A stretch of DNA of 64,000 nt from the IMG/VR virus record IMGVR_UViG_3300034069_002177, positions 64,001 through 128,000 of that record; one strand, written 5' to 3'. The notes beneath the pieces were generated by a model. It did not search any database and had not been told where the DNA came from. It saw nothing but the letters and a program-made list of their open reading frames with translations. Of the stretch, positions 2,955 through 17,840 are shown piece after piece. Source of the stretch: a virus (taxonomy: Duplodnaviria; Caudoviricetes). The first letter of the stretch is position 1; each line of letters begins with the position of its first letter. The translations under genes and the position numbers were made by a program.

Positions 2955-3026
2955 TCCCCGATGGTGTAATTGGTAGCACGACTGGTTCTGGTCCAGTTAG
3001 TCTTGGTTCGAGTCCAGGTTGGGGAG
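2955..3026 (+). tRNA. trnQ: tRNA-Gln(CTG)
   Basis: Cloverleaf; loop TT-CTG-GT. Confidence 0.95.
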
Positions 3027-3101
3027 CGGGAGTGGTAGAAATTACCGCTTGTATCAACTTGCATACAGCAGTCAGATGTGCAAGAATCTAGACAGTAGTA
3101 A

Positions 3102-3172
3102 TCCCCTATAGTGTAATGGCAGCACGAGAGCCTTTGGAGCTTTTTGTTTTGGTTCGAATCCAGATGGGGGAA
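3102..3172 (+). tRNA. trnQ: tRNA-Gln(TTG)
   Basis: Cloverleaf; loop CT-TTG-GA. Confidence 0.92.
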
Positions 3173-3245
3173 CAAACGCGAAAGCGTCAAGCATTCCAGA
3201 ACGGTGACTACAACTCGCGCCGCTCCACGTTAGCATTCTGGATGC

Positions 3246-3317
<72 letters not shown>

Positions 3318-3421
3318 CAAGACACGTTCTCTACACCGAGGCGTCTTAGATACATCAAACAGCAGTGTGTAGTCAGGTTAGCTGGAATATGCAAGTTGCT
3401 CTATCAACTCAAACTGGGTAT

Positions 3422-3505
3422 GCGCACGTGGCGGAAATGGCAGACGCGCTAGCTTGAGGTGCTAGTGTTCGAAAGGACGTGAGGGTTCAAGTCCCTCCGC
3501 GCGCA
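3422..3505 (+). tRNA. trnL: tRNA-Leu(GAG)
   Basis: Long variable arm; loop TT-GAG-GT. Confidence 0.93.
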
Positions 3506-3573
3506 CACATGATTTGACAACATCGGTTTCGTTGGTGTACAGTTATGGAACAAGACAACAGAGAAAAAGATAT

Positions 3574-3655
3574 GCCCCTGTGGCGGAATTGGCAGACGCG
3601 CTCGACTCAAAATCGAGTTCTTCACGGAGTATCGGTTCAAGTCCGATTAGGGGTA
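3574..3655 (+). tRNA. trnL: tRNA-Leu(CAA)
   Basis: Long variable arm; loop CT-CAA-AA. Confidence 0.95.
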
Positions 3656-3699
3656 CAGGTTGTAGGCTGAAAATAACCAGCATAGTCAGAAGCCTATAT

Positions 3700-3773
3700 G
3701 CTCTCGTAGCCCAATCGGCAGAGGCGGTTGACTTAAAATCAATACAGTGTGGGTTCAAGTCCCACCGAGAGTA
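3700..3773 (+). tRNA. trnL: tRNA-Leu(TAA), short variable loop
   Basis: Loop CT-TAA-AA; short-arm form as in actinobacterial Leu(UAA). Confidence 0.92.
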
Positions 3774-3816
3774 CGCAACACAAGCAATAGAACAAATCCC
3801 ATTAATTAACACACCA

Positions 3817-3889
3817 CGGGGTGTGGCGCAGTTGGTAGCGCGCCCGTTTTGGGGGCGGGAGGTCGCAAGTTCGAATCTTGTCACCCCGA
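3817..3889 (+). tRNA. trnP: tRNA-Pro(TGG)
   Basis: C1-G72; loop TT-TGG-GG. Confidence 0.95.
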
Positions 3890-3942
3890 CGTAACAATGC
3901 ATTACACTAACAAGTAACGCAAGCAACAAAAGCAACACGTAT

Positions 3943-4015
3943 TCCTCGATAGCTCAATTGGCAGAGCATCGCACTGTTAATGCGACGGTTCTTGGTTCGA
4001 GTCCAAGTCGGGGAG
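3943..4015 (+). tRNA. trnN: tRNA-Asn(GTT)
   Basis: Cloverleaf; loop CT-GTT-AA. Confidence 0.95.
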
Positions 4016-4175
4016 CTAGGCGGTAGGGTCGCCTCTACACGTCGATTACGACAAACATCATGCAACAGTGCGTAGCACGCGCTTTCGCCCAATGGGCGGA
4101 CGACCGCCTCTACTAGCCGCATGGTCATAAAGTCGAAATCATTAGTACGGTGCATCCGCGCCTACCGCCCATGTT

Positions 4176-4342
4176 TTCCTTGAAGCACACTGGCAGTGCG
4201 CGCCTACATAGTAGGTCTTAAGAGATGGAGGTTCGAATCCTCCCAGCCGCCCTCGTGACGGCTGTAGTTCAATTCGTAGATTGGTAGAACAGACCGACAT
4301 AGCCGGTAACAAAGAATGTGGGTTCAAATCCCACCAAGGAAT
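4176..4342 (+). ncRNA. tandem double tRNA-like RNA with swapped acceptor strands
   Basis: Two D/AC/T-arm sets; TTCCTTG (4176-82) pairs with CAAGGAA (4335-41); CAGCCG (4244-49) pairs with CGGCTG (4259-64); both AC loops ACATAGY. Confidence 0.7.
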
Positions 4343-4524
4343 CGAAACAACATCTAGCAGCATGGTCAGGAAGATGACTTGGATGTTGTTGTATCGAGGT
4401 ATGAATGAACCCGCGTAGCGAACCATTCCCATCTTCACCTATTCTTTCCTCGTAAGAGGCGGTGTTTCCTAAATCCCTCGGGATGGACGGACTCAGGGCT
4501 TTCCGTAAAGTTTCGTCCACCAAA

Positions 4525-4913
4525 GGGGATGACTTGGATTCGACTGATTGATACAGGCGAAAAGAAGCGTGCCGTGGGTTGTCTGGCGACTACGTAAATT
4601 ACACCAGGCAAAAAGAAATGCAAACGCATCTCGCAACGACTTCGCACTCGCAGCCTAACCGCTACGAGGCTTAATGGAGTCTGTCTCAGCTTCCAATGCA
4701 GAATGATTCACGGCAGGAACTAGGCATCAGCAAAGAGGAATCCGATGCGTCACCTAACTACTGGGTGGCAAGCAGCGTAATCATGGTAGATAGACGATAA
4801 CGAGCCGGTGTCCATACCAACTCGTTGCAGTCGATAACCGCCCCAAATGGACTACGCACGTAGAAGGTTTCGGTTTATCAAGCAACACGCGGGTTCGATT
4901 CCCGCCATCTCCA
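4525..4913 (+). ncRNA. ssrA: tmRNA
   Basis: 5' GGGGATGACTTGGATTCGAC; 3' GCGGGTTCGATTCCCGCCATCTCCA with G3-U70; tag ORF 4620-4658 = ANASRNDFALAA*. Confidence 0.95.
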
Positions 4914-5109
4914 CGACCACTCACGAGAAGTACCGGCTCGATACCGGCATGATCCACCATATGGGTCATCTGCATGGCAACAGACTACGTGGGAGCACAT
5001 ATTTAGGTGAGAGTCCTTAGTCCAGACCGGGAGGGTATGACCGGGAGAGGGTGAAAGCCCCTAGGTGCCGCCTAACGTGGACGGCACCGCACAAACTTAC
5101 AAGTACGAG

Positions 5110-5139
5110 TTGACAGAAGCCATTTCTGCCTGTCATACT
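5110..5139 (+). promoter_or_regulatory. sigma70-type promoter
   Basis: TTGACA-18 nt-CATACT upstream of tRNA-Ser. Confidence 0.6.
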
Positions 5140-5160
5140 GAATGAACAGCAACACAATAT

Positions 5161-5249
5161 GGAGTGGTCGCATAGTCCGGCTTAGTGCAGCAGTCTTGAA
5201 AACTGCCGTGGCGTTAAAACCACCGTGGGTTCAAATCCCACCCGCTCCG
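5161..5249 (+). tRNA. trnS: tRNA-Ser(TGA)
   Basis: Long variable arm; loop CT-TGA-AA; G73. Confidence 0.95.
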
Positions 5250-5296
5250 CGAAGGTTATAGGGTAGACATACCCGTTCCCTTTCACAATCAAAAGA

Positions 5297-5453
5297 TGGC
5301 GTGTGGCGCAATTTGGCTGACGCAGTGGACTAGTACCTAACCCCTACGACTGGTGAGTTGTAATGGCATGGACGGAATCCACCGGAAATAGGGAGGCATT
5401 GGAAACGATGTCCCACCCGAGGTTCCTTGCAGGTTCGAGTCCTGTCACGTTGT
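5297..5453 (+). ncRNA. enlarged tRNA-like RNA with insertions in anticodon loop and variable arm
   Basis: Acceptor TGGCGTG/CACGTTG, D arm GCG/CGC, AC stem GTGGA/TCCAC enclosing ~48 nt, ~46 nt variable region, T arm GCAGG-TTCGAGT-CCTGT. Confidence 0.6.
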
Positions 5454-5469
5454 CTTCGATTGTGCCTTC

Positions 5470-5542
5470 GGGTTTTTAGCTCATCTGGTAGAGCGCTGCT
5501 TTTGCAAGGCAGAGGTGAGGGGTTCAAGTCCCCTAAGATCCA
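5470..5542 (+). tRNA. trnA: tRNA-Ala(TGC)
   Basis: G3-U70; loop TT-TGC-AA; unusual G48. Confidence 0.93.
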
Positions 5543-5568
5543 CGAGTCAAAGAAACTTCGGTTTTGAT

Positions 5569-5598
5569 TTGACTTAGATAGAAATTGTCTGGTAGTGT
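5569..5598 (+). promoter_or_regulatory. sigma70-type promoter
   Basis: TTGACT-18 nt-TAGTGT. Confidence 0.5.
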
Positions 5599-5670
5599 TG
5601 TGATAACAACAACGGAACTTGAAAAGACAACAGTGGAAATACAAGCTCAACGAAATTGGTTGAGCGAAAT

Positions 5671-5757
5671 GGAGCCGTCGCATAGTGGCCTAGTGCACCA
5701 CCCTGCTAAGGTGGAGTACCCGCAAGGGTACCGTGGGTTCAAATCCCACCGGCTCCG
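5671..5757 (+). tRNA. trnS: tRNA-Ser(GCT)
   Basis: Long variable arm; loop CT-GCT-AA. Confidence 0.96.
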
Positions 5758-5951
5758 CAAAGACCGAATGAGTAACCCCTGGTACGGGTAAAAATTCAGT
5801 CCTCGCTCAAATCAGCATCATCGATGCGGCTTCCAGCCGTGAAGTTGGAAAGTACATCGAGGGTGGTACCACTGAAACGAGCAATTGCCTTGGATGACTC
5901 AATAGGGGTGCGAAATGACATAAGTCATGAGCTTCACTGAATAGGCATTAT

Positions 5952-6038
5952 GGAACCGTCGCATAGTGGTCTAGTGCACCACCTTGGAAAGGTGGCATAC
6001 CTGCAAGGGTATCGAGAGTTCGAATCTCTCCGGTTCCG
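5952..6038 (+). tRNA. trnS: tRNA-Ser(GGA)
   Basis: Long variable arm; loop TT-GGA-AA. Confidence 0.96.
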
Positions 6039-6237
6039 CGTTGTCGTCTTCCAAGCGACAATCCCGACAAACCTGGGTGAAGGGTTGTTCAATGATGGCT
6101 AAGAACTAAAACCGAGCCATTGTGTATTTTCTTCATTCTTGCACTGACTAGAATGTTGCGGTTGATCCCGTTAGGAAATCTACGGAACGGCTTCGGTTGT
6201 TTCGGGTCGTTAGGGTTTGATCACCCTTTCGACGCAT

Positions 6238-6311
6238 GCCTCGCTAGCTCAATTGGCAGTAGCATCTGACTCTTAATCAGAGGGTTCCCGGTTCAAGTCC
6301 GGGGCGAGGCA
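6238..6311 (+). tRNA. trnK: tRNA-Lys(CTT)
   Basis: Cloverleaf; loop CT-CTT-AA. Confidence 0.95.
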
Positions 6312-6745
6312 CAAAGTATCTTCGGATACTTGCAGTAAGACAAGGCTTCCATGTACGCCGCAAGGTATGTAGAGAAATCGCTTCGCATGGGTGAGTCTTA
6401 CTGAGAACGTAGAGATGCGATTAGAGGCGTTCTTTCCACACTTGTACACCGGATCGGTCCTAGGAGCCTATCGTCACAGACGGCACATCCGAGGGAGGGG
6501 TTGATGAACCCTTGTACGTATACATCGTCGCTTCAAGCACAGCCTCTGTGAGGAACTGTTGCCAGTTCGGACGTAACCCGAACGCTCGTAAGTTCACAGC
6601 CTATGTAGAGGGGCTGGTGGGGCGCAATCCCATTGCGGTTATGAAAAGCCGAAAACTTGCAGCATTTTCGTCATGTGCGGGGTTCAATTCCCCAAGGGCG
6701 TCGGCTCAAACCCGGCGCGGTTGGATTCATTACCGTGGCGAATAT

Positions 6746-6819
6746 GGTGGGCGTAGCTCAGTTGGTAGAGCGCTGGCTTGTGGAGCCGGATGTCGCGGGT
6801 TCGAGCCCCGTCGTTCACC
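6746..6819 (+). tRNA. trnH: tRNA-His(GTG)
   Basis: Encoded G-1 opposite C73; loop TT-GTG-GA. Confidence 0.95.
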
Positions 6820-6994
6820 CGAATTACGTTCTGATTCAGATACCAAAAAGGAATCAGAAAGTCATCGAACAGCTTGGTATCTCTGTTGTGGATGGTGTGA
6901 AGTCGTATCGAGTCATCTTTTGCGTCGGCAGGCGTTGATGACAGGTGATGCATTCCGAAAGGAACTGCCCGTCGATAGCTTCACATAAGTTTTT

Positions 6995-7085
6995 GGAGGG
7001 GTCGCATAGTCCGGCTTAGTGCAGCAGTTTCGAAAGCTGCCGTAGGTGTCACATCCTACCGTGGGTTCAAATCCCACCCTCTCCG
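6995..7085 (+). tRNA. trnS: tRNA-Ser(CGA)
   Basis: Long variable arm; loop TT-CGA-AA. Confidence 0.95.
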
Positions 7086-7195
7086 CAATAGAGTTCAAGC
7101 AGCCCTGATTACCAGGAAGCATAAGATGACACTTGGACCTAGATTTCTTCATCGACTAGCAGATTCGTTCTGACTTGTCAGATGAAGTAAGTAAT

Positions 7196-7275
7196 GCCCG
7201 ATTGGTGGAATTGGCAGACACGCTGGCTTTAGGTGCCAGTGCTTAGGCGTGAGAGTTCAAGTCTCTCATCGGGTA
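7196..7275 (+). tRNA. trnL: tRNA-Leu(TAG)
   Basis: Loop TT-TAG-GT; Leu-type D arm. Confidence 0.94.
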
Positions 7276-7421
7276 CGCACGGATTCACAAGACGACTGGT
7301 GCAATGGTCGTTGCATAGTGCCTTGTTGTGATGATGTTGCCGGTTGGATCGGTATTGCACAATTGCCCCCCAACAAATCAGGTCCACCGAACGTCGTGAT
7401 GACAGTGCGGTGGGCTTCTGA

Positions 7422-7495
7422 CGCTCAGTAGCCAAGATGGTAAGGCGCACCGCTCATAACGGTGTTACGCGGTGGTTCGAGTCCACCCTGAGCGA
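7422..7495 (+). tRNA. trnM: tRNA-Met(CAT), elongator or Ile2
   Basis: Cloverleaf; CACCG-CT-CAT-AA-CGGTG. Confidence 0.88.
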
Positions 7496-7732
7496 CAAAG
7501 GTGATGAGGAAGGTCTTGACTACACTCATTATCTAACGGGACGACCCGGCAAGGTCGCTTTCGGTTCTCAGGTTTATCCCGTACACCCCTGAGACAGCAG
7601 TGTGAAACCTTTTGCCGAGGGTTGCTGCATTTTGAGACAGAAGAATGCATGTGATGTTATTGCCTCCGCGCTGACCTCTCCATGTTGGATATCTGTCGGA
7701 TCCTAAGTTGGTCACACTCGGCTTAGTTGTCT

Positions 7733-7806
7733 GGCGCGTTAGCACAATTGGTAGTTGCAGCACCCTTTCACGGTGCAGGTTACGGGTTCGAGCCCCGTAC
7801 GCGTCA
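7733..7806 (+). tRNA. trnE: tRNA-Glu(TTC)
   Basis: Loop CT-TTC-AC; 5-nt variable loop AGGTT. Confidence 0.92.
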
Positions 7807-7822
7807 CGTTTCTTGTTGGTAC

Positions 7823-7852
7823 TTGACAAGATAGGTAAGTCACCTGTAAGGT
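7823..7852 (+). promoter_or_regulatory. sigma70-type promoter
   Basis: TTGACA-18 nt-TAAGGT. Confidence 0.65.
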
Positions 7853-7867
7853 GATAGTAGTAAATAT

Positions 7868-7941
7868 GGCGCTGTAGCACAATTGGCAGTTGCATCGGTT
7901 TCTCAGACCGAAGGTTGCGGGTTCAAGTCCCGTCAGCGTCA
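7868..7941 (+). tRNA. trnE: tRNA-Glu(CTC)
   Basis: Loop TT-CTC-AG; 5-nt variable loop AGGTT. Confidence 0.9.
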
Positions 7942-8070
7942 CGATAACCCAAACGCTCCGAGGAATGTCGGAATCACTGGCGGGTTAGATAACTAACGAG
8001 AGACACTACGTAGCCTTCCTCAGGAGGTCTTTCGTCCAGAGTCGCCTACTGAGGCGGAAGCGACTACCAT

Positions 8071-8144
8071 GCCATCTTAGCTCAGTTGGAGAGAGCGACT
8101 GTTTGAAAAGCAGTAGGTCACCGGTTCGGCTCCGGTAGTTGGCA
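8071..8144 (+). tRNA. trnF: tRNA-Phe(GAA)
   Basis: Loop TT-GAA-AA; one acceptor mismatch. Confidence 0.88.
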
Positions 8145-8171
8145 CACTGGTTCCTTTTAGGACCACGTTAT

Positions 8172-8246
8172 ACCCTTGTAGTTCAGTAGAGATTAGGGCG
8201 CTTGTCGATGAGACAGGAGGCGGTGGTTCAAGTCCACCTGGGGGTA
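8172..8246 (+). ncRNA. non-canonical tRNA-like element (loop CG-ATG-AG)
   Basis: Acceptor ACCCTTG/TGGGGGT, AC stem CTTGT/ACAGG, perfect T arm GGTGG-TTCAAGT-CCACC; G33. Confidence 0.6.
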
Positions 8247-8363
8247 CGGTTGAGAGACTTTGCAAGGTCTCGATGCAAGTTCGGCGGGAATTGAACCCGT
8301 GCGGGGCGCAAGCTACGGTTGTCGTATGAGGAAGCTTACTCAGATAGTCTTCGCGTAGCACAT

Positions 8364-8436
<73 letters not shown>

Positions 8437-8517
8437 CAAACGGTGAGAGCCACTGGTTCTTAGCCGTCTTATCTCTACATCAACATCCAATCTATAGATA
8501 CGGCGTTGCTGTAGGGT

Positions 8518-8591
8518 TCCCTGTTGCGACTAATGGAATATGTCGTCTTCACAAGAACGAAGAGATGCCAGTTCGACTCTGGTACGGGGAG
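8518..8591 (+). ncRNA. non-canonical tRNA-like element with 8-nt anticodon loop (ACAAGAAC)
   Basis: Acceptor TCCCTGT/ACGGGGA, D stem CGAC/GTCG, AC stem TCTTC/GAAGA, T arm GCCAG-TTCGACT-CTGGT. Confidence 0.6.
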
Positions 8592-8731
8592 CTTAGTGGT
8601 ACCGGCACAGGGTGTACAACCATCGTCGGTGCGGTCGGGAGTGATATCCCCTGACCAGTCGTGCTTGGAAGGCTGCGTAATGTAGTACGGGGTTCGATCC
8701 CCGTCATGAGCCACTTATACTTCTTCAAGGG

Positions 8732-8761
8732 TTGACCGGAATCAAGATGCCGTGATACCAT
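8732..8761 (+). promoter_or_regulatory. sigma70-type promoter
   Basis: TTGACC-18 nt-TACCAT just upstream of tRNA-Met. Confidence 0.6.
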
Positions 8762-8772
8762 TGAAGGCATAA

Positions 8773-8847
8773 TGCGGGGTAGGGCAGTTCGGTAGCCCGC
8801 CAGGCTCATAATCTGGAAGTCGCGTGGTTCAAATCCCGCCCCCGCAA
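8773..8847 (+). tRNA. trnM: tRNA-Met(CAT), initiator-like scaffold
   Basis: fMet-like D arm and loop CT-CAT-AA, but paired U1-A72 and no run of three G-C pairs in AC stem. Confidence 0.85.
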
Positions 8848-9069
8848 CGTTACAACGAAGATACAAACATCGAAGGGTTCTTGTATCGGGATTACTAGAA
8901 AGCGCAACCTGCGTGTAACTGGGTTGTGTTAGGTGGGGACCGTAAGGTTCGTGCCGACACCGGCAAGAGAACGAGACCTAGCGTGAGAGCGAGAGGTCAG
9001 GTGAATTGGTACTTCGTACCGCGAGAAGCCCGAGCTTAGATGCACACGTTCCACTTGCCGGTTTTGTTT

Positions 9070-9142
9070 GGGTCGTTAGCTCATCTGGTAGAGCGCTGCT
9101 TTTGCAAGGCAGAGGTGAGGGGTTCAAGTCCCCTACGATCCA
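9070..9142 (+). tRNA. trnA: tRNA-Ala(TGC)
   Basis: Near-identical to 5470-5542 apart from the acceptor stem; G3-U70; G48. Confidence 0.94.
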
Positions 9143-9242
9143 CGCTTCCTCTCCAATCACCATTCTCGGCTCATTACCTTGGATGGCGGAGAGCCCCCAC
9201 TTCGATACCGGTTACGGGGTGGGGGATAGAAGCAACCAATAT

Positions 9243-9316
9243 AGGGGTATAGCTCAGATGGTTAGAGCGCTTCGCTGATAACGAAGAGGTCTTCGGTTCA
9301 ATTCCGAATATCCCTA
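9243..9316 (+). tRNA. trnI: tRNA-Ile(GAT)
   Basis: Cloverleaf; loop CT-GAT-AA. Confidence 0.95.
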
Positions 9317-9346
9317 CTGCTCATTGTCACTTCTAGAATCTGGCGG

Positions 9347-9376
9347 TTGACAAAGAGTTACGACACACGATAAAGT
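9347..9376 (+). promoter_or_regulatory. sigma70-type promoter
   Basis: TTGACA-18 nt-TAAAGT. Confidence 0.7.
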
Positions 9377-9424
9377 GGTGGTCGCGGTAAACAGTCCGCA
9401 CAGGCTCTCAACATTGAGGGTTCT

Positions 9425-9499
9425 GGCGCATTAGCACAATTGGTTAGTTGCATCGCCCTTTCACGGCGAAGGTTACGGGTTCAAGTCCCGTATGCGTCA
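9425..9499 (+). tRNA. trnE: tRNA-Glu(TTC)
   Basis: Loop CT-TTC-AC; 5-nt variable loop AGGTT. Confidence 0.93.
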
Positions 9500-9500
9500 C

Positions 9501-9577
<77 letters not shown>

Positions 9578-9602
9578 CTTCCAAACCAATATCAGTTTGG
9601 AC

Positions 9603-9632
9603 TTGACATCTACACAAAGTTGTTGCTAAGGT
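9603..9632 (+). promoter_or_regulatory. sigma70-type promoter
   Basis: TTGACA-18 nt-TAAGGT. Confidence 0.7.
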
Positions 9633-9701
9633 TGTTCTATAAGCAAGAAAGAACAACACTTGGTAACTCCATAGAGAAAGAAATGCCGCGCAAGCGGTTT
9701 T

Positions 9702-9774
9702 GGCTGTATAGCTCAGGGGTGAGAGCACTTCGCTGATAACGAAGGGGTCGGTGGTTCGATTCCACCTACAGCCA
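9702..9774 (+). tRNA. trnI: tRNA-Ile(GAT)
   Basis: Cloverleaf; loop CT-GAT-AA. Confidence 0.96.
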
Positions 9775-9973
9775 CTCGGAACACAACAACTCGCATACCT
9801 GCCGGACCAATCATCTGAGCAGCGCGGGGCGGAATGTTCGTCTCGAAAGAGAAATCGGCGGTATCTAGCGGTCCTTGGTTGCAAGGGTGCCGCAAGATGG
9901 ATGAGTACCGAGCGTTAACCTCATCAGATGATACGAAGCGAGATTGATTACCAAGCTTCTAAGTCGTCAACAT

Positions 9974-10046
9974 GCCCCTTTAGCTCAGTTGGTAGAGCGC
10001 TACGTTTACACCGTAGATGTCATCGGTTCGAGCCCGGTAGGGGGCA
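9974..10046 (+). tRNA. trnV: tRNA-Val(TAC)
   Basis: Cloverleaf; loop TT-TAC-AC. Confidence 0.95.
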
Positions 10047-10252
10047 CTGCACCAAGCGGTTATGCATGACTGACTATGGTGCTTGACACATACCAAGTGT
10101 CTAGGCGGGGTTCCTGAATGTGACCTAGTTGTCGGTTGGCTCCAAACCGTCCCTTATGGACTACGAGGTTACCGCGTGTCCCGTTTAGCGTTCTTGCGTG
10201 AAGAGCGTTGTGGGTGTCCGTCTCAGTGGTACGAGACGTAATCCCACAGAAT

Positions 10253-10325
10253 GCGCCCGTAGCTCAGGGGATAGAGCGGTTGACTACGGATCAACAGGTC
10301 GGGGGTTCGATTCCCTTCGGGCGCA
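10253..10325 (+). tRNA. trnR: tRNA-Arg(ACG)
   Basis: Cloverleaf; loop CT-ACG-GA. Confidence 0.96.
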
Positions 10326-10340
10326 CGCAACACAAAGATT

Positions 10341-10581
10341 TTCAACCAACTGGACTGTCGCGGGCGAAAGCTTGAGGAAAGTCCGGGCACTTGACCAACT
10401 ACCGTGTGGTAGATGAACTCCGCGTTCATCGCTCAAGAACCACTAAGCCCAACCTAAAAAGCAGGGTGCAGGATGTGTGCAACGCCAAACAGTCTGAGGG
10501 AGTTGGTCTCCTGTGAAAGACGGGTAGGCGGCTGAGACAGATGACAGTCTAAAACAGAACCCGGCTTACGGGTTGGTTGAA
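10341..10581 (+). ncRNA. rnpB: compact RNase P RNA
   Basis: GAGGAAAGTCC (10374-84) and ACAGAACCCGGCTTA (10554-68); P1 10341-51/10571-81; P2 GGACTGTC/GACAGTCT; P7-like GACCAACT/AGTTGGTC. Confidence 0.9.
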
Positions 10582-10586
10582 TTAAT

Positions 10587-10670
10587 GCCCGCATGGCGAA
10601 ATTGGCAGCCGCGTTGCGTTCAGAGCGCAATGACCGAATGGTCGTCCGAGTTCAAGTCTCGGTGTGGGCA
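10587..10670 (+). tRNA. trnL: tRNA-Leu(CAG)
   Basis: Long variable arm; loop TT-CAG-AG. Confidence 0.94.
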
Positions 10671-10761
10671 CTGCTGACCTAGGTCAGCCACTAATGAAAG
10701 GCTACACGAAATGATGGACTCCACCTAACCCTCCTTTGTTGACTATACAAAGGAGGTGAAA

Positions 10762-10941
10762 ATGAGAAAATTCACATACACAGACACCCGCGACTGGAAG
10801 GTCGCTGATGTCGATGGCAAGGCTATGACCTTGCTCGTGACGGATGCAAAGGGCAACAAAAGGAACGTCGAAAAGTTCGACGGCTTCCGCTCTGCATCCA
10901 GAGCAGCCAAGAAGCTTGGTGGTTTCGCCGTTAGGGCGTAA
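10762..10941 (+). CDS. small basic hypothetical protein (59 aa)
   Basis: Strong RBS AAGGAGG upstream of ATG; phage-like codon usage. Confidence 0.7.
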   Translation: MRKFTYTDTRDWKVADVDGKAMTLLVTDAKGNKRNVEKFDGFRSASRAAKKLGGFAVRA

Positions 10942-11057
10942 CTAGGCTTTCAGATTTCTCCGGTGTGCGGAGAATGAAATACCCAGTCGTGGACCTTGCA
11001 GAAACGAAGCGGCTGGCGAGTGGTAGGCATGTACTGCACTGTCCTACCACTCAAAAT

Positions 11058-11130
11058 GGCTCTGTAGCTCAGTTGGTAGAGCGTTCGACTGAAAATCGAA
11101 AGGTCACCGGATCGATGCCGGTCGGAGCCA
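11058..11130 (+). tRNA. trnF: tRNA-Phe(GAA)
   Basis: Loop CT-GAA-AA; T loop ATCGATG. Confidence 0.93.
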
Positions 11131-11280
11131 CGACCGATTCCATACAGTTTTTGCGGACTGCGATGGATCTCACTACTAGCCACGGGTACTTCGTTGCGTG
11201 CTGAGTAGGACATGAGGATTGGTGCCTCATCAATGAATAGACTGGTTGGGATACCGCAAAATTTCCAACTGGTCGCACTA

Positions 11281-11354
11281 GCCTCGCTAGCTCAATATGG
11301 CAGAGCATCAGACTTTTAATCTGCGGGTTCTCGGTTCAAGTCCGAGGCGGGGCA
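11281..11354 (+). tRNA. trnK: tRNA-Lys(TTT)
   Basis: Cloverleaf; loop CT-TTT-AA. Confidence 0.93.
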
Positions 11355-11379
11355 CACATCATTGGGATTCCAATGACTA

Positions 11380-11464
11380 GATAGTAGTGATGTAATTGGC
11401 AGCACGTCCGCCTTGTGTACAGAGGGCTAACGGAAGGAATCGACTCGAAATCGTTCTACTATCG
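11380..11464 (+). ncRNA. His-like degenerate tRNA with expanded anticodon arm
   Basis: 8-bp acceptor GATAGTAG/CTACTATC, D-arm motif TGTAATTGGCAGCAC, TCCG/CGGA enclosing 20 nt that include TT-GTG-TA; degenerate T loop CTCGAAA. Confidence 0.5.
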
Positions 11465-11590
11465 AAAACCGTGGCGTATGGTTTATTACGCAGTCACCGA
11501 AACATGGCGTAGGCGAAGCGCCCTAGAAGTTGGATTAGGTGAAAGGTGTCGGAAGCTCCCTCAGCAGGAGCCTAGTCTTGGTCACCATAT

Positions 11591-11663
11591 TCCTCTATAG
11601 CTCAATTGGCAGAGCAGTCGGCTGTTAACCGACAGGTTCGTGGTTCGAATCCACGTGGGGGAG
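11591..11663 (+). tRNA. trnN: tRNA-Asn(GTT)
   Basis: Cloverleaf; loop CT-GTT-AA. Confidence 0.95.
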
Positions 11664-11786
11664 CAATGCGAGTATCCGGTACGCAAGGTTGCAACGCTCG
11701 CAGAAGTCCTAACTTTCCCACAGCAGTCCGTGAGGGAAGTCAAGCAACGGAAATGAGAAATCATAGGGTTGGCGGTTAGGCAACAT

Positions 11787-11858
11787 GGCGATGTGGTGTG
11801 AGTGGTTAGCCGTTTCTCTGCAAAAGAAAATATGCCGGTTCGATTCCGGTCGTCGCCT
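11787..11858 (+). tRNA. trnC: tRNA-Cys(GCA)
   Basis: Loop CT-GCA-AA; U73. Confidence 0.9.
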
Positions 11859-11869
11859 CAATGCTCGAT

Positions 11870-11899
11870 TTGACTTTCACCGGTCAGTCGTTCTACCAT
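11870..11899 (+). promoter_or_regulatory. sigma70-type promoter (may also drive the downstream repeat array)
   Basis: TTGACT-18 nt-TACCAT. Confidence 0.65.
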
Positions 11900-11914
11900 G
11901 TTCTATATGAACAT

Positions 11915-11989
11915 GGGGTGATAGCCAAGCTGGTTAAGGCACCGAACTCATAATTCGACGATTCGTGGGTTCAAGTCCCACTCACCCCA
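11915..11989 (+). tRNA. tRNA-Ile2/Met(CAT)
   Basis: Cloverleaf; loop CT-CAT-AA; isotype (lysidine Ile2 vs elongator Met) not resolvable by eye. Confidence 0.88.
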
Positions 11990-12163
11990 CTCAACTTCAT
12001 CACTACTCCGATGAGGTAGGGTTCCGATAAGCACCATGTGTGCTAAGATTGGGGCTCGCAGAACCACCCGGTTCTGTTGTGTGCTGGATTCCGTGTTGTG
12101 CGCACGACGTGGAATTCATCGGTCGAAGTCCGACGTATGTAACCGACGAAACAGGTGCTACAT

Positions 12164-12236
12164 GCCCGTATAGCTCAGTTGGTAGAGCGCCAGCATGACT
12201 CGCTGGATGTCGGGGGTTCAAATCCCTCTACGAGCA
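12164..12236 (+). tRNA. trnV: tRNA-Val(GAC)
   Basis: CCAGC-AT-GAC-TC-GCTGG; atypical T37; one acceptor mismatch. Confidence 0.85.
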
Positions 12237-12252
12237 CTGCTTCTTGACACGA

Positions 12253-12519
12253 AGCTATTCCTGAGAAATCGGGATGTTCCGCCCTGACCTTCGCATTGTG
12301 AAGTTCCTTACCTCGGTTTGGATGAACCACTGCGACCCTTGGAGCCACCAAGTCCCTACTCCGGTAGGGATGAACCACCACGACCTTCGCGTCCACAATA
12401 TCCTCGCCTCGGCTTGGATGATCCTCCCCAACCTTCAGATTCATCACTTCCTCGCTCCGGCTTGGATGAACCGCGATGACCTCTACCGTGGGTACACTTT
12501 CGTTTCGACGGGAATTATG
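12253..12519 (+). CRISPR. delocalised degenerate type I-E-like array: 6 repeats, five 20-nt spacers
   Basis: GGATG at exact 48-nt period (12272, 12320, 12368, 12416, 12464); 28-nt units with 7-bp-stem/4-nt-loop geometry, e.g. CAAG-TCCCTAC-TCCG-GTAGGGA-TGAACC; degenerate terminal repeat ~12493-12519. Confidence 0.8.
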
Positions 12520-12528
12520 GAAATGGAC

Positions 12529-12558
12529 TTGACAGAGTATGGTCTGGTACTGTAAAGT
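12529..12558 (+). promoter_or_regulatory. sigma70-type promoter
   Basis: TTGACA-18 nt-TAAAGT. Confidence 0.7.
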
Positions 12559-12626
12559 GGTAAACGTCTTGTGAGAGCAAGACTTCGGAACTTCACAACA
12601 CAATAGCGTTTAGTAAGAAAGATTTT

Positions 12627-12700
12627 GCTTCTGTAGCTCAGATGGTTAGAGCGCCGCCCTGTCACGGCGGAGGTCGCCGGTTCAAGTCCGGTCAGGGGCG
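12627..12700 (+). tRNA. trnD: tRNA-Asp(GTC)
   Basis: Cloverleaf; loop CT-GTC-AC; core identical to 1719-1792. Confidence 0.95.
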
Positions 12701-12947
12701 CTATCAAAGGAACCGCGTTAGCGGGTTGCCTGCGATACAGCAAGACACCAGATACCGTCAAATATCTGGTACCCACACTTCTACCGTCGATGCGGTAGGT
12801 TCCGTTGACACGGAAGGATCGTTTCAAGTGAAGGTCTTGTACTTTGTTGGGCGTCGTCCTCCGGGACTGGCGCAGCCGATGGGTTCGGTTCCGTGACTCA
12901 TCTCCCTTTTATGCCGAGTGGTTGCAAACGCGAGGAAACGGAAATAT

Positions 12948-13020
12948 GGGGTCTTAACTCAGTTGGTAGAGTGCCTGCTTTGCAAGCAGGATGTCAGGAG
13001 TTCGATTCTCCTAGACTCCA
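12948..13020 (+). tRNA. trnA: tRNA-Ala(TGC)
   Basis: G3-U70; loop TT-TGC-AA. Confidence 0.95.
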
Positions 13021-13160
13021 CGTTGGTAGACGAAAGTCTTACCTTGGTAGATGAACACCTACCCTGCTCCAGTAATGGACAGGCTCCGAAGCAGAGATTC
13101 GGAATCCTACGTAAGACTGCTAGCGTCGCACATAGGAATATCGAGTCAAGTGTTCAACAT

Positions 13161-13231
13161 GGATTTTAGCTCAGTTGGTAGAGCACCTGCTTTCAAGCAG
13201 AATTTCGGGAGTTCGATTCCCCCATAATCCG
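13161..13231 (+). pseudogene. degenerate Ala-derived tRNA with 6-nt anticodon loop (TTTCAA)
   Basis: D arm and CTGC/GCAG stem resemble Ala(TGC) at 12948 but G35 is missing; mismatches in T and acceptor stems. Confidence 0.55.
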
Positions 13232-13375
13232 CGAACAAGAAGCTGTTGAAGTTTAGGGATTAACTACCCGAGTGCAGATACGTGTGTGTACTGTTTATAC
13301 CCTAGTCGCCGGTTAGGATGATGACTGCTTGGTAGTTCTTGCAGTGATTGTTCATGAATACGAGCTAGGCTCTGT

Positions 13376-13446
13376 GGGGATGTAGCTTAATGGTAAAGCC
13401 TTAGTCTTCCAAACTAATGACGCGGGTTCGATTCCCGTCATCCCCT
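13376..13446 (+). tRNA. trnG: tRNA-Gly(TCC)
   Basis: Loop CT-TCC-AA; U73. Confidence 0.94.
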
Positions 13447-13709
13447 CTGTGGCATCATCGAAATTACGGTGAAGGCTTCCTAACGCCTCTGTGTGAATCG
13501 CAGTGAAAAGTTAGGACTCTGCCGGAGTAGAGTGGTTGCATAGACTAAACCGGAAACAGGGCTTGCGGACCTGGGCGTGATACGGGATTCGGCTATCACA
13601 GACCTCTTTATGAGGCATATGGATGAAAGTTCCACAGTGAAGCATTTAGGAAATTCGAAGAATCCAAACGCGTTGGATGAAATCGTATAGACTAAGTGCA
13701 TCACGACAT

Positions 13710-13781
13710 GCGGATGTGGCGCAGTGGTAGCGCATAACCTTGCCAAGGTTAGGGTCGCGAGTTCGAATCTCGTCATCCGCT
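13710..13781 (+). tRNA. trnG: tRNA-Gly(GCC)
   Basis: Loop TT-GCC-AA; U73. Confidence 0.96.
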
Positions 13782-13949
13782 CGTAAGCAGCATTTGACTG
13801 CTAGGGCTTCTAGGATATCCATTGGGTATCCTTTTAGTCGAGATCCCGTCCAACCGCAAGGTTGGCGTAAGCGGTCGTTCAAATACACCTTCTCTAACTC
13901 CGGTTGGCATCGAAAGATGCGTTCTTGGGAAGCGTGTTAAACCGGATAT

Positions 13950-14021
13950 GCGGTCATAGCCTACGGGTATGGCAACTTGGCTTCCAGCCAAGAGTTGATG
14001 GTTCAAGTCCATCTGACCGCT
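13950..14021 (+). tRNA. trnG: tRNA-Gly(TCC)
   Basis: Loop CT-TCC-AG; U73. Confidence 0.9.
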
Positions 14022-14344
14022 CAAAGCCATCCAGAAGGCGGTATAAGCGAGTAACTAACGCCGATACCATCCGATGCTGGCTCATCCTTAGAATGGAACG
14101 TGGCGCTTGTGAGACTGTAGTGGTCAAGCACGTGTTACCGGAAATTCTCAGGCTCTGATTCTCGACTAGTAATCGGGAAGCGGGTTTGCTTCACCCGCCC
14201 TAGCTGCGACGAGTAGTGGCGAAGGAATAAGCACCTCAGCAATGCGAGGCTAAGCGTTGCCACTATTGGGTCACTGTTTACTAGACAAACCCTTTAGGAT
14301 TCGGTAAGCTAGAGACTAAGAAGCTTCCTAGCTTCCGAATACAT

Positions 14345-14439
14345 GGGACTGTAGCTCAAAAGTCACCCTCAAGGTGGCGGGTAGAGCAAGGAGCGGCGCG
14401 CGTTCCAGAAGGTTATCGGTTCGATCCCGATCAGTTCCA
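14345..14439 (+). ncRNA. Ala-like tRNA with hairpin inserted in D loop (loop GG-CGC-GC)
   Basis: Acceptor GGGACTG/CAGTTCC with G3-U70 and A73; D stem GCTC/GAGC enclosing GTCACC-CTCAA-GGTGGC; T arm ATCGG-TTCGATC-CCGAT. Confidence 0.65.
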
Positions 14440-14481
14440 CGGTCTTCTAGTCGTCCTTCGGGATGGCTAGAACTCCACCAT

Positions 14482-14556
14482 GCGAAAGTAACTCAGCGGT
14501 AGAGTTCCTCGTTGCCAACGAGGTTGTCGCGGGTTCGATCCCCGTCTTTCGCTCCA
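14482..14556 (+). tRNA. trnG: tRNA-Gly(GCC)
   Basis: Loop TT-GCC-AA; CCA encoded. Confidence 0.95.
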
Positions 14557-14641
14557 AGGTAGGAATTTGTCAAACGCAGCCCGGTGCCCTGACGACATCG
14601 ATGCTGTAGGGGTTCCTGCCTGTAACTTATTTTCATGATTT

Positions 14642-14714
14642 GCCCTCGTAGCTCAGGGGATAGAGCAGGAGCCTTCTAATCTCTTGGTCGCAGGTTCGAA
14701 TCCTGCCGAGGGCA
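14642..14714 (+). tRNA. trnR: tRNA-Arg(TCT)
   Basis: Loop CT-TCT-AA. Confidence 0.93.
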
Positions 14715-14815
14715 CAACGGTCGTCAATGGGCGTACACGACCGGGTTTACTTGGCGTCCAAAACAGGCGGCTTCCTATGAGTGTATGGAGGCTGATCCTC
14801 GACTCGACACTCACT

Positions 14816-14888
14816 GCGTTTGTAGCTCAGTGGATAGAGCAGTTGACTACGGATCAACAGGTCGGGGGTTCGAATCCCTCCAGGCGCA
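14816..14888 (+). tRNA. trnR: tRNA-Arg(ACG)
   Basis: Loop CT-ACG-GA. Confidence 0.95.
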
Positions 14889-14947
14889 CAGATTTGCATG
14901 GTAGCTGTCTAGCTGCTATGCTTTTCACGAGGGTAAAACCTTGAAAT

Positions 14948-15020
14948 GCCGACTTGGCGCAATTGGTAGCGCAACTGTCTTGTAAACAGTAGGTTGCGGG
15001 TTCAAGTCCCGCAGTTGGCT
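14948..15020 (+). tRNA. trnT: tRNA-Thr(TGT)
   Basis: Loop CT-TGT-AA. Confidence 0.95.
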
Positions 15021-15036
15021 CTCCGAAGGGATAATT

Positions 15037-15399
15037 ATGTACGACTTGTCATTCTCTGAATTTGACGACGAACCTCGCGCCCTCCCCATCGATGTAGCGC
15101 GTAATCGCATCGAGCCGTTGTTCCCGAATTTGAAGTTCACAAGTGCTGGCGGGTCAGTTCCCTTCCAAGCCGAGGGCTACTACATGGGTATCGCGGACTT
15201 TTACTTTCGGTTCCGACATGACTCGGCTAGTCTCACGATTGGTCGTCCTGGTCGGCACACCCCCGAAAATGATTTCGTCATCTACAAAGATGACGTGACT
15301 GGCGAGGATTACGCGGGAACGCTCGACGATGATGAATTTGTAGCGTTGTTCACGGAACTCATGGAGCGTATGCTTGCAGAGAAACCACTTCCTCGCTAA
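15037..15399 (+). CDS. hypothetical protein (120 aa, acidic)
   Basis: RBS GAAGGGA, protein-like composition, fills gap between tRNAs. Confidence 0.8.
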   Translation: MYDLSFSEFDDEPRALPIDVARNRIEPLFPNLKFTSAGGSVPFQAEGYYMGIADFYFRFRHDSASLTIGRPGRHTPENDFVIYKDDVTGEDYAGTLDDDEFVALFTELMERMLAEKPLPR

Positions 15400-15448
15400 G
15401 AAATAGACTGGTGATGGTCAGGTCAGAAATGAAGCAGCCATCATCTTT

Positions 15449-15521
15449 GCCCTTGTAGTTCAGCGGATAGAGCGTCATCTTCCGAAGGTGAATGTCGCTG
15501 GTTCGAATCCAGTCAAGGGCA
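15449..15521 (+). tRNA. trnR: tRNA-Arg(CCG)
   Basis: Loop TT-CCG-AA. Confidence 0.92.
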
Positions 15522-15757
15522 CAAGCAACACGAAGTGGCGATGGCAGGGTAAGTTGCAACGACTGTCACGCTCCCTATGCATGGGGTTGTGTTGTGAGGT
15601 GAAGGGAAATCACCAAATTCGTACTGGTCGTTCAAGTCAGGACTGCTTGTTAAAAGTGAGATGGGGGTATCGAATCCTTCCTAGTACGCCAAACTTCTTG
15701 TAACACGACCGGGTTCAGCCCAGTCGTGTGATATAGCCAGACACCGATGGTGTTTAT

Positions 15758-15829
15758 GCCACTTTAGCTCAGGGGTAGAGCAAACGCTTCGTAAGCGTTA
15801 GGTCGTCAGTTCAAATCTGACAAGTGGCT
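15758..15829 (+). tRNA. trnT: tRNA-Thr(CGT)
   Basis: Loop TT-CGT-AA. Confidence 0.95.
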
Positions 15830-16089
15830 CGGAATCGGGAACAAGGTCTCTCGGTAACGGACAGGTACAAAACGAGAACCCAGTGCACATGGACTCGCAC
15901 AAAATCCTGTTACCGTTTCGGTGTCCGTCTTCTTACGTTTTCGGGCACCGAACATTCTTCGAGGTTCAGCACTCGACGTATTTCATCTCAGGATACGGTA
16001 CGATACCAAAGGCTGGTCGGAGGTACACCGAAGGTAATCTGTTAGTGCAGATGATCAACCATGCACAGCGCGGAGTGATTCGCGTTTGT

Positions 16090-16161
<72 letters not shown>

Positions 16162-16197
16162 CGTAAAGACTGCTACGGTAGTTATTCACGAAAATAT

Positions 16198-16273
16198 GGG
16201 TTCTTAGCTCAGTTGGTAGAGCATCACGCTGGCAGCGTGAGGGTCAGGGGTTCGAATCCCCTAGGATCCACCA
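16198..16273 (+). tRNA. trnA: tRNA-Ala(GGC)
   Basis: G3-U70; loop CT-GGC-AG; CCA encoded. Confidence 0.95.
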
Positions 16274-16302
16274 TATAGACACCTTGACGAAACGGACCAA
16301 AG

Positions 16303-16776
16303 TTGACCGAGCTAGTAATCGCTCCAATGAATGTCGAAGATATTCAGTCCGTTATCGACCATGTAACCAATGTATCCCTAGCTTCGTCGCATCTCGACCA
16401 CCCCAATATCGGTGCATGGCTTGAAGGTGAATACAATCCTGCTGATGTACTCGCAAAGCTTGATTCGAGCATCTGTCTCATTGTGAGAGATAACGAGCAC
16501 ATTGTCGGTACCGGATTCATCGATACGACAACTGGCTACATTTCGGGTGTCTATGTCTCCAATAAGGGACACGGTACTGGTCGTTTGATTGTCGATAGGT
16601 TGCTTGAAGAAGCAGCAGCAGAGGCTGGTACGAAACACTTCACTGCGAGTGTTCATCCTGACTCGAAAGCCATGCAGCACATTCTTTCAACGTCTGGTTT
16701 CACGGCAACGCATGTGGACCCTCACGTTGTTTACTATGTTGGTACCGACTTCATGATTTGGGAAAAGTCGGTATAG
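16303..16776 (+). CDS. GNAT family N-acetyltransferase
   Basis: beta4/alpha3 acetyl-CoA motif VYVSNKGHGTGRLIVDRLL; C-terminal AMQHILSTSGF. Confidence 0.8.
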   Translation: MTELVIAPMNVEDIQSVIDHVTNVSLASSHLDHPNIGAWLEGEYNPADVLAKLDSSICLIVRDNEHIVGTGFIDTTTGYISGVYVSNKGHGTGRLIVDRLLEEAAAEAGTKHFTASVHPDSKAMQHILSTSGFTATHVDPHVVYYVGTDFMIWEKSV

Positions 16777-16782
16777 CAACAC

Positions 16783-16854
16783 GCCTCGTTAGTTCAGCGG
16801 AAGAATGCCTCTTTCCTAAAGAGTTGGTCGCTGGTTCGAATCCAGTACGGGGCA
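16783..16854 (+). tRNA. trnR: tRNA-Arg(CCT)
   Basis: Loop TT-CCT-AA. Confidence 0.9.
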
Positions 16855-17209
16855 CTGGGAAAACACCAACAGATTCGATTAGTCATCGAGGAACTAAGTT
16901 GGTGAGGGTGGTCGTTCACCGTGAAAAGAACGATGTCTGGTGATGTAGACGAGGTACCTAGCCTGAATCACAAGCGGATGAGACGGTTAGCTGGTTGGTG
17001 GACGCTCGATAAGGGTGGTTTCCGTACTCGCTGATTTGTGGGGTATAGATTCCGAATACTGCGACCCATCGTGGAAGACAACAAGCGGCTTGACTGGTCG
17101 CCCAAGTGACAAGTGTGGTGGAAATCCACTAGTAATCAAGAGCGTGGTACAGGGATCATAACCCTGCCTCCGTGAAGGTTTTAAGCCGGAGCGGCTTGGT
17201 TGCGATTTA

Positions 17210-17283
17210 CGGAGTATGGGAAAATTTGGCAATCCGCGCCGTTCGGGACGGCGAGAATGAGGGTTCAAATCCCTCTACTCCGA
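17210..17283 (+). tRNA. trnP: tRNA-Pro(CGG)
   Basis: C1-G72; loop TT-CGG-GA. Confidence 0.92.
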
Positions 17284-17377
17284 CATGGGGCGAGTGAGTC
17301 CGCGAAACCTTGGTGTTGACAACACAAGTAGACGTGGGCGCGGTCGCGTGTTTTCTCGACACCCTGTATCGTCAAAT

Positions 17378-17634
17378 GCAGTAGGGTTGAGGAACAGAAA
17401 TGCGGGCAGCAATGTGCCGCTACCGTAGGTCGAGACTACGGCGCTCCACCAAACTTTTGACACAGATTGGTCAACCCCGGCGCTTTAGGGGCTGAGAACG
17501 GCTCACAGAGCCAGTGGTCGTGGGCGAAGCGTGAAGGCATCCTGGGTAAGTCCTTCCGGCAAGCTACCAACGCGAATTCTGAGGTTCATGTCTTGGAAGT
17601 GCTGGGGACGTGGGTTCGATTCCCACCGACTGCA
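17378..17634 (+). ncRNA. large structured RNA closed by a tRNA/tmRNA-like acceptor and T arm
   Basis: GCAGTAG pairs (6/7) with CGACTGC-A after GGGGAC-GTGGG-TTCGATT-CCCAC; internal hairpins such as CCGTAG/CTACGG. Confidence 0.4.
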
Positions 17635-17660
17635 CAACGTCAGCAATGCGCTGACCGTAT

Positions 17661-17734
17661 GGTGTTCGTAGCTCAATTGGCAGAGCGGCAGGTCGTGAAC
17701 CTGTTCGTTGCGGGTTCAAGTCCCGTCGTCCACC
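17661..17734 (+). tRNA. atypical tRNA-His-like (loop TC-GTG-AA)
   Basis: G-1/C73, canonical D and T arms, C33, two acceptor mismatches. Confidence 0.65.
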
Positions 17735-17766
17735 TGAAACGATACCCTTATCGTCAAAAGGAATAA

Positions 17767-17840
17767 CAGGATGTAGCGCAGTTTGGTAGCGCGCCAGTTC
17801 GGGGAACTGGAGGTCGCGGGTTCAAACCCCGCCATCCTGA
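17767..17840 (+). tRNA. trnP: tRNA-Pro(GGG), C33 variant
   Basis: C1-G72; CCAGT-TC-GGG-GA-ACTGG. Confidence 0.85.

Follow-up and report, generated by a model that had tools for sequence, protein, structure and literature searches.

Can an RNA of 241 nt, encoded among the tRNA genes of a virus, be a genuine and working RNase P RNA? Few ribozymes are universal; RNase P RNA belongs to them and has been treated as a cellular and organellar gene. The question was raised by the IMG/VR record IMGVR_UViG_3300034069_002177 (202,737 bp, provirus class, CheckV completeness estimate of 96%), of which bases 64001 to 128000 were analysed; this stretch of 64,000 nt is called the window hereafter. The initial annotation had proposed that the element encodes a miniaturised RNase P RNA of about 241 nt. 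Our analysis confirms part of what had been observed, corrects the anatomy and supports part of the interpretation. We regard it as highly probable that the locus is a real and selected gene for a miniature, class A-derived RNase P RNA, which would be transcribed with the tRNA array, bind the RnpA protein of the host and trim the pre-tRNAs of the element.

Detection of the RNase P RNA gene

The covariance model of the bacterial class A RNase P RNAs (RF00010) matches the window at positions 10342-10584 in an E-value scan, with a score of 84.9 bits and an E-value of 2.4e-26 (2.2e-27 when the whole record is taken as search space). The alignment runs end to end, from model position 1 to 367, and displays no truncation. 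The comparison with RF00010 that the initial annotation had recommended thus yields a significant full-length match, though with a score below the Rfam gathering cut-off of 100 bits. A scan of the window at the gathering threshold returned no RNase P match and the E-value scan alone recovered 10341-10581; a score under the cut-off means that annotation pipelines overlook this RNA. It is the single RNase P match in the whole 202,737-bp record, and the best model of the clan CL00002 is RF00010, not the archaeal RF00373. The object is real and far beyond a chance match.

The class A consensus blocks GAGGAAAGUCCGGGC, GCAA, CGGGUA, AGA..GAUG and ACAGAACCCGGCUUA are kept, identical or nearly so. The formal marks of class A that the RNA fails are the gathering score, P18 and the P8-P14 specificity domain. 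The RNA clearly descends from a bacterial class A RNase P RNA, and its activity would be class A-like.

Anatomy of the catalytic domain

The ends of the gene were set at P1 by duplex folding, which gives a length of 241 nt, as first estimated. The features are listed in Table 1, where counts refer to the 21 sequences of the alignment described below.

Table 1. Features of the RNase P RNA gene and of its two tRNA neighbours, in window coordinates. Compensatory changes are given as pairs with such changes over pairs in the helix.
Feature	Position	Strand	Remarks
Upstream tRNA-Arg(ACG)	10253-10326	+	ends 14 nt before the RNA
Whole miniature RNase P RNA gene	10341-10581	+	241 nt, from P1 5' strand to P1 3' strand
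P1 5' strand	10341-10350	+	pairs with 10572-10581; compensatory changes 10/10 (21 sequences)
P2 5' strand	10352-10359	+	pairs with 10543-10550; compensatory changes 4/8; paired in 18-21 of 21 sequences per position
P3 hairpin, GAAA loop	10361-10374	+	compensatory changes 5/5
Conserved block GAGGAAAGUCCGGGC	10374-10388	+	identical to RF00010 consensus
P4 5' strand	10379-10387	+	inside the GAGGAAAGUCCGGGC block; bulged U at 10382
P5	10388-10390 / 10477-10479	+	3' strand GUG; paired in 21/21 at three positions
P6 pseudoknot, 7 bp	10393-10399 / 10502-10508	+	GACCAAC with GUUGGUC of the P17 loop; compensatory changes 7/7
Reduced specificity domain	10400-10475	+	about 76 nt, from P6 5' strand to P5 3' strand
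Weak P7	10402-10403 / 10471-10472	+	CC/GG; 2 bp in the window; judged by eye
Hairpin S1	10406-10409 / 10440-10443	+	GUGG/CCAC stem; compensatory changes 3/4
Hairpin S2	10447-10450 / 10464-10467	+	GCCC/GGGU stem; compensatory changes 2/4
J5/15 bases CAA	up to 10482	+	directly after P5 3' strand; GCAA invariant
P15-P16-P17 arm	10483-10530	+	same arm folds in 21/21 sequences
P15	10483-10486 / 10527-10530	+	compensatory changes 3/4
P16	10492-10495 / 10518-10521	+	compensatory changes 3/4
P17	10498-10501 / 10509-10512	+	folded arm
L15 3' strand GGGUA, with GGU	10522-10526	+	CGGGUA nearly invariant across relatives
Single-stranded joiner P15 to P2	10531-10542	+	usual place of P18; AGA..GAUG motif
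Conserved block ACAGAACCCGGCUUA	10554-10568	+	identical to RF00010 consensus
P4 3' strand	10560-10567	+	inside the ACAGAACCCGGCUUA block
Downstream tRNA-Leu(CAG)	10587-10671	+	starts 5 nt after the RNA

The catalytic domain is almost complete: P1 to P6, P15 to P17, the GGU of L15 and the conserved P4 and joiner blocks are all present, and only P18 is lost. The two universal P4 motifs and the helices P1, P2 and P3 were found as the initial annotation had reported them. Its statement that little or no room is left for P15-P19 has to be abandoned, as P15, P16, P17, the L15 GGU and a P6 of 7 bp are present and covary. P18 occupies 24 positions in RF00010 and faces 0 window bases; it is absent in all window-type relatives, and there are cellular class A RNAs that lack it as well.

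The P4 pseudoknot with its bulged U, which had been proposed as the test of the fold, forms 8 of 8 pairs in 21 of the 21 sequences, all of them invariant or G-U. P5 shows the swaps AU/UA and CG/GC/UA among relatives. The two strands of P6 have a mean duplex energy of -10.7 kcal/mol when cognate versus -6.6 kcal/mol when non-cognate. P3 is of different length between relatives and its loop-proximal pair is formed in just seven of the 21 sequences. In class A enzymes, the GGU of L15 base-pairs with the 3' end of the tRNA.

Two automated folds were set aside. The minimum free energy fold of the single sequence (z = -2.0) was dropped from the model, because pseudoknots mislead it. RNAalifold, applied to the multi-alignment, wrongly joined P2 to the 5' strand of P4, and L15 to its 3' strand; these pairs were exchanged for the class A pseudoknotted pairing and the pairs were then counted by script.

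Reduction of the specificity domain

The loss of size falls almost wholly within the specificity domain. This domain, bounded by the 5' strand of P6 and the 3' strand of P5, measures about 76 nt and not about 100 nt as initially estimated. The model positions of P8 to P14 are unaligned in the window RNA, where they are bridged by inserts of 27, 25 and 34 nt. Class A RNAs dock the tRNA elbow through the blocks CR-II and CR-III, and neither block can be recognised in the RF00010 alignment. What is left comprises P7, read by eye as 3-4 bp with swaps in the relatives, and the two hairpins S1 and S2. The tip of S1 varies from 5 to 34 nt among relatives and the stem of S2 closes the highly conserved loop AACCUAAAAAGCA. 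As a speculation, the U..A-rich invariant loops of S1 and S2 (UAAG and UAAAA) could form T-loop-like docking motifs.

Two sequences of this domain are strongly conserved, ACUAAGCC and the S2 loop AACUUAAAAAGCA. That the RNA has conserved specificity sequences of its own, unalignable to class A, and that the reductions differ between elements would suit a specialised ribozyme, in which the two-hairpin domain steers the enzyme to particular targets (for example the unusual precursors of the element, tRNA-like RNAs or the tmRNA), maybe with an unrecognised element protein. We consider this distinctly unlikely, since the standard L15 GGU and the whole active site fit ordinary pre-tRNA cleavage, and neither a candidate protein partner nor a link to a non-tRNA target was found in the data.

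Relatives and covariation

Relatives were sought by scanning for patterns in which the two P4 blocks stand at shortened spacing. These scans detected two viral contigs (171 kb and 191 kb), 20 metagenome loci and eight more viral loci (seven distinct RNAs). The multi-alignment (A2) contains 21 sequences, that is, the window and 20 loci of the same architecture; three further window-type loci (two distinct RNAs) and four cultured phages were added outside it, for a total of about 24 non-redundant window-type relatives. They are of 210-275 nt and 50-86% identical to the window RNA, and those that were scored with RF00010 reach 64-85 bits. Most of them are located within the tRNA arrays of other large elements.

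The covariation analysis was realized on 47 pairs of P1, P2, P3, P5, P6, S1, S2, P15 and P16. Over the 21 sequences, 90.7% of the cells hold standard pairs, versus 36-47% after the partner column has been displaced by one to three positions and 64.9 ± 0.9% (maximum 68.5%) in 500 column shuffles. Compensatory double changes are observed in 37 of the 47 pairs; no shuffle exceeds 32. For P1, P2, P5, P6, P15 and P16, the cognate strands pair far better than strands taken from different members.

This covariation, together with the invariant P4 and the shared arm, indicates a functional structured RNA and not a decaying fragment. A functionless remnant of a captured host rnpB would be in keeping with a length below that of any cellular bacterial RNase P RNA and with a score below the Rfam cut-off. 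We hold this reading to be extremely improbable: about two dozen elements have the same reduced architecture, in which 37 of the 47 pairs carry compensatory changes, the precise deletions are common to the relatives, and an RNA library contains an identical contig (see below).

The other sequence searches had the following outcome. BLASTN against plasmids gave no match. Against phages, the window sequence as query gave only tRNA matches; the homologues in Microbacterium phages surfaced only with the relative from the 171-kb contig (L004) as query. None of the five matches in the scan of the GTDB genomes was assigned to the window-type family and none was near a tRNA gene. Three of them are class A RNAs (166-207 bits) from proteobacterial MAGs and two are reduced RNAs from Candidatus Shapirobacteria MAGs.

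Two loci differ in their surroundings. L010 (Ga0308158_10000009, 885,359 bp) and L014 (Ga0308157_10000025, 697,643 bp) are very long metagenome contigs that carry window-type miniature RNAs, and no tRNA genes were found in the stretches examined around them; they may be giant elements or small genomes of cells. In another element, L039 (IMGVR_UViG_3300012942_000035, 114,812 bp), the tRNA array contains a window-type miniature RNA, a GOLLD RNA (RF02032, 199.7 bits) and a tmRNA; the sites are 2438-2853 and 6827-7195.

Occurrence in cultured Microbacterium phages

The family is present in four cultured phages of Microbacterium foliorum, of approximately 192-195 kb, which include A3Wally, Zooman and Big4. 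The RNA of L004 is 99.5% identical to a stretch of A3Wally (194,724 bp) and about 91% identical to Zooman, Big4 and the fourth phage. The copy of A3Wally (MZ150783, about 93852-94072; 72 bits) lies in an unannotated gap between the tRNA genes 162 and 163, and those of Zooman, Big4 and the fourth phage (64.3 bits in the fourth) likewise lie in unannotated gaps; the deposited annotations of the carrier phages lack the RNase P RNA. The tRNA and tmRNA arrays of large actinobacteriophages, for example A3Wally, Zooman, Big4 and Pumpernickel, are loci of the same kind as that in the window: tens of tRNA genes share a strand, and genes for the repair or maturation of tRNAs are close by. Microbacterium phage Pumpernickel contains no RNase P RNA.

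The deposited annotation of A3Wally (L031, MZ150783.1, 92354-95565) names tRNA-Pro(ccg), tRNA-Val(gtt), tRNA-Leu(ctg) and tRNA-Phe(ttt), in the order in which ARAGORN reads Arg(ccg), Asn(gtt), Gln(ctg) and Lys(ttt) on L004. From this comparison, the deposited labels appear to come from an anticodon read as a codon.

The tRNA array and its companion genes

The tRNA island extends from position 899 to 17841 of the window. It comprises 64 genes for tRNAs and one for a tmRNA, without exception on the plus strand; this count replaces the earlier one of about 70 tRNA or tRNA-like genes. In L018, the closest relative, the RNA is followed at short distance by the same tRNA as in the window. A tRNA ends 0-2 nt before P1 in about ten loci (e.g. 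L004, L006, L023, L009, L012, L015, L021 and L022), and a tRNA starts 0-5 nt after P1 in five (the window, L018, L004, L006 and L023). The 14-nt spacer upstream of the window RNA leaves no room for a promoter, and a consensus scan of 9500-11200 detected neither promoter-like sites nor plus-strand terminator-like sites.

The full CCA is encoded by three of the 64 tRNA genes. A frame of 573 amino acids with a PolyA_pol domain (PF01743) was observed outside the window (G000:C1:8653-9054, locus L032). This nucleotidyltransferase domain is typical of CCA-adding enzymes and poly(A) polymerases, and such a protein fits an element whose tRNA genes are without CCA. An RtcB tRNA-splicing/repair ligase (PF01139, E 2e-120) is encoded on the plus strand at 20147-21493, about 2.3 kb downstream of the tRNA island. 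The PF01743 protein, RtcB and the tmRNA together suggest that the element supplies several steps of tRNA maturation and repair.

The base directly after the discriminator is a C in 62 of the 64 tRNA genes of the window. A co-adaptation of this C to the retained L15 was considered and rejected as specific evidence, as the array of Pumpernickel, which is without RNase P RNA, has a C in 13 of 13 cases.

IMG/VR classes the element as a virus. Phage_capsid (PF05065, HK97-type) and Terminase_6N (PF03237) gave no match in the record, and two families are too few to decide whether it is a phage. Genes for Cas3 and Cse1 are present at positions 50277-55261 of the window.

RNA evidence and proposed function

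In the RNA-seq run X5 (leaf litter), one contig of 184 nt with a depth of 5.4 is identical to positions 10374-10557, wholly inside the RNA, and nothing else in 9900-11200 is covered. The library does not belong to the study of the sample from which the element probably originates. The contig hints at a stable RNA; it is uninformative on strand or ends, and DNA carry-over is possible. The runs X13, X17 and X19 were rejected as expression data, as they cover the flanking tRNA genes only and their contigs continue into unlike sequence.

A gene for RnpA (Ribonuclease_P, PF00825) was not found in the record, in the complete genome of A3Wally or in two other viral contigs, which is consistent with the borrowing of host RnpA put forward in the initial annotation. 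In class A holoenzymes, as seen in the Thermotoga maritima structure, RnpA contacts P2/P3, P15 and the joiner before P2. These regions are retained in the window RNA. Bacterial RnpA proteins are reported to be interchangeable between species (PMC4919922). From these three points, the use of host RnpA is the simplest inference.

The same facts can be turned towards a decoy or regulator, an RNA that would bind host RnpA or pre-tRNAs without useful catalysis, so that host RNase P would be starved or sponged and the maturation of host tRNAs would drop as the element takes over. Little is left of the specificity domain, a protein partner encoded by the element was not found and the RnpA-contact regions of class A are kept. 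The bulged U of P4, the GCAA of J5/15 and the GGU of L15, which a decoy would not need, are nevertheless conserved across the 21 relatives, and the 64 tRNA genes that the element carries raise its need for RNase P activity and do not lower it. We regard a decoy as very unlikely.

The window RNA is most likely a working catalytic RNA that uses host RnpA and is freed by the processing of its tRNA neighbours. The RNA would be transcribed within the one-strand transcript of the tRNA array. Its 5' end would be made by 3' processing of the upstream tRNA, and its 3' end by the RNase P cut that creates the 5' end of the downstream tRNA, so that the enzyme would help to mature itself. Once bound to host RnpA, it would strip the 5' leaders from the 64 pre-tRNAs and the pre-tmRNA of the element. 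The gain might be an added RNase P capacity, or continuity at times when the host is overloaded or shut down by the element. The most likely role of the RNA is to provide RNase P with catalytic RNA when the pre-tRNAs of the element are made in a burst. With regard to the proposal of an element-encoded miniaturised RNase P RNA, the full-length RF00010 match, the covarying family, the place in the tRNA array and the contig of the RNA library are all in its favour.

A bolder combination of these elements would be a tRNA-maturation line run by the element itself, in which the two-hairpin module of 60-80 nt docks the tRNA elbow and which is maybe free of host RnpA; taken jointly, these proposals appear rather unlikely. 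The version free of host RnpA might rely on the RNA alone or on an unrecognised element protein. If it were true, the element would keep making tRNAs after disabling the tRNA genes or the RNase P of the host, and the two-hairpin module would represent a previously unseen and much smaller way of docking the tRNA elbow.

Comparison with known RNase P RNAs

The window RNA is a known ribozyme in a reduced form, with an unexpected carrier. It shares with the class A RNAs P1-P6, P15-P17, the L15 GGU, the bulged U of P4 and the motifs of J5/15 and of the joiner before P2. It differs from them by its length of 241 nt, by the absence of P18, by the replacement of P8-P14, CR-II and CR-III by two small hairpins, by a long P6 (about 6-8 bp across the window-type family, 7 bp in the window) and by its location in a tRNA array of a mobile element and not on a cell chromosome. 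Bacterial P RNAs are typically of 340-420 nt (PMC4919922), and the M1 RNA of Escherichia coli has 377 nt (PMC3001073).

Two naturally reduced RNAs are the closest points of comparison. That of Mycoplasma fermentans is of type B lineage and retains the specificity core that docks the elbow. According to the accounts given in two later papers, it is small (276 nt) and catalytic (Siegel et al. 1996, via PMC3001073 and PMC2858038), and it is reported to be without P12 (PMC2858038). Both RNAs are naturally reduced and of bacterial type; the window RNA is 35 nt shorter, has relatives down to 210 nt and has no alignable specificity block. The minimal RNA of Pyrobaculum (type T/P), as summarised in a later account, lacks nearly the whole specificity domain (Lai et al. 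2010, via PMC4919922). Like the window RNA, it consists of a catalytic domain with almost no specificity domain, but it is archaeal and cellular and works with several archaeal proteins, whereas the window RNA is of class A lineage, is carried by a mobile element and retains a small conserved remnant of the specificity domain. In the literature searched, with most subscription journals outside its coverage, no description of a phage- or plasmid-encoded RNase P RNA was found.

With 210-275 nt, and most members below the 276 nt of M. fermentans, the family represents the smallest natural bacterial-type form and reveals which parts of the ribozyme nature can lose. It adds a catalytic RNA to the translation toolkit of mobile elements (tRNAs, tmRNA, repair enzymes). 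It also points to a gap in annotation, as nearly all these miniature RNAs score below the Rfam cut-off. The members found in cultured M. foliorum phages open activity, protein partner, processing and fitness to bench tests.

Differently reduced RNase P RNAs

A second type of reduction is represented by L005 (IMGVR_UViG_3300028920_000026, 190,723 bp), where an RNA of 207 nt lies at the end of a tRNA array (10596-10802). This RNA keeps P8, P9 and P18 and has lost P12-P14 and P15-P17. Unlike the window RNA, it still aligns to P8, P9, ACAGAA and GUAAACC, and its 118.5 bits exceed the Rfam cut-off. BLASTN of this type of RNA against phages was discarded as evidence, the matches being only bacterial rnpB in mislabelled or contaminated records. 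Five other large viral contigs (L034, L036, L037, L038 and L040) contain further differing reductions. From this variety, miniaturisation within tRNA arrays seems to have occurred by several routes.

The contig PMNQ01000053.1 of a Gammaproteobacteria MAG (L029) contains a class A match of about 265 nt (2084-2348, 174.5 bits) and, about 130 nt away, a second match restricted to the specificity positions 109-211 (2477-2584, 87.9 bits); this pair could reflect an rnpB that has been split or rearranged, or an error of assembly. Finally, two Candidatus Shapirobacteria MAGs (L026 and L027) and the locus L024 carry RNase P RNAs that measure about 205-240 nt and have no tRNA genes in their vicinity, the best-scoring model for L026 being the archaeal RF00373. 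These look like the own reduced RNase P RNAs of cells of the candidate phyla radiation.
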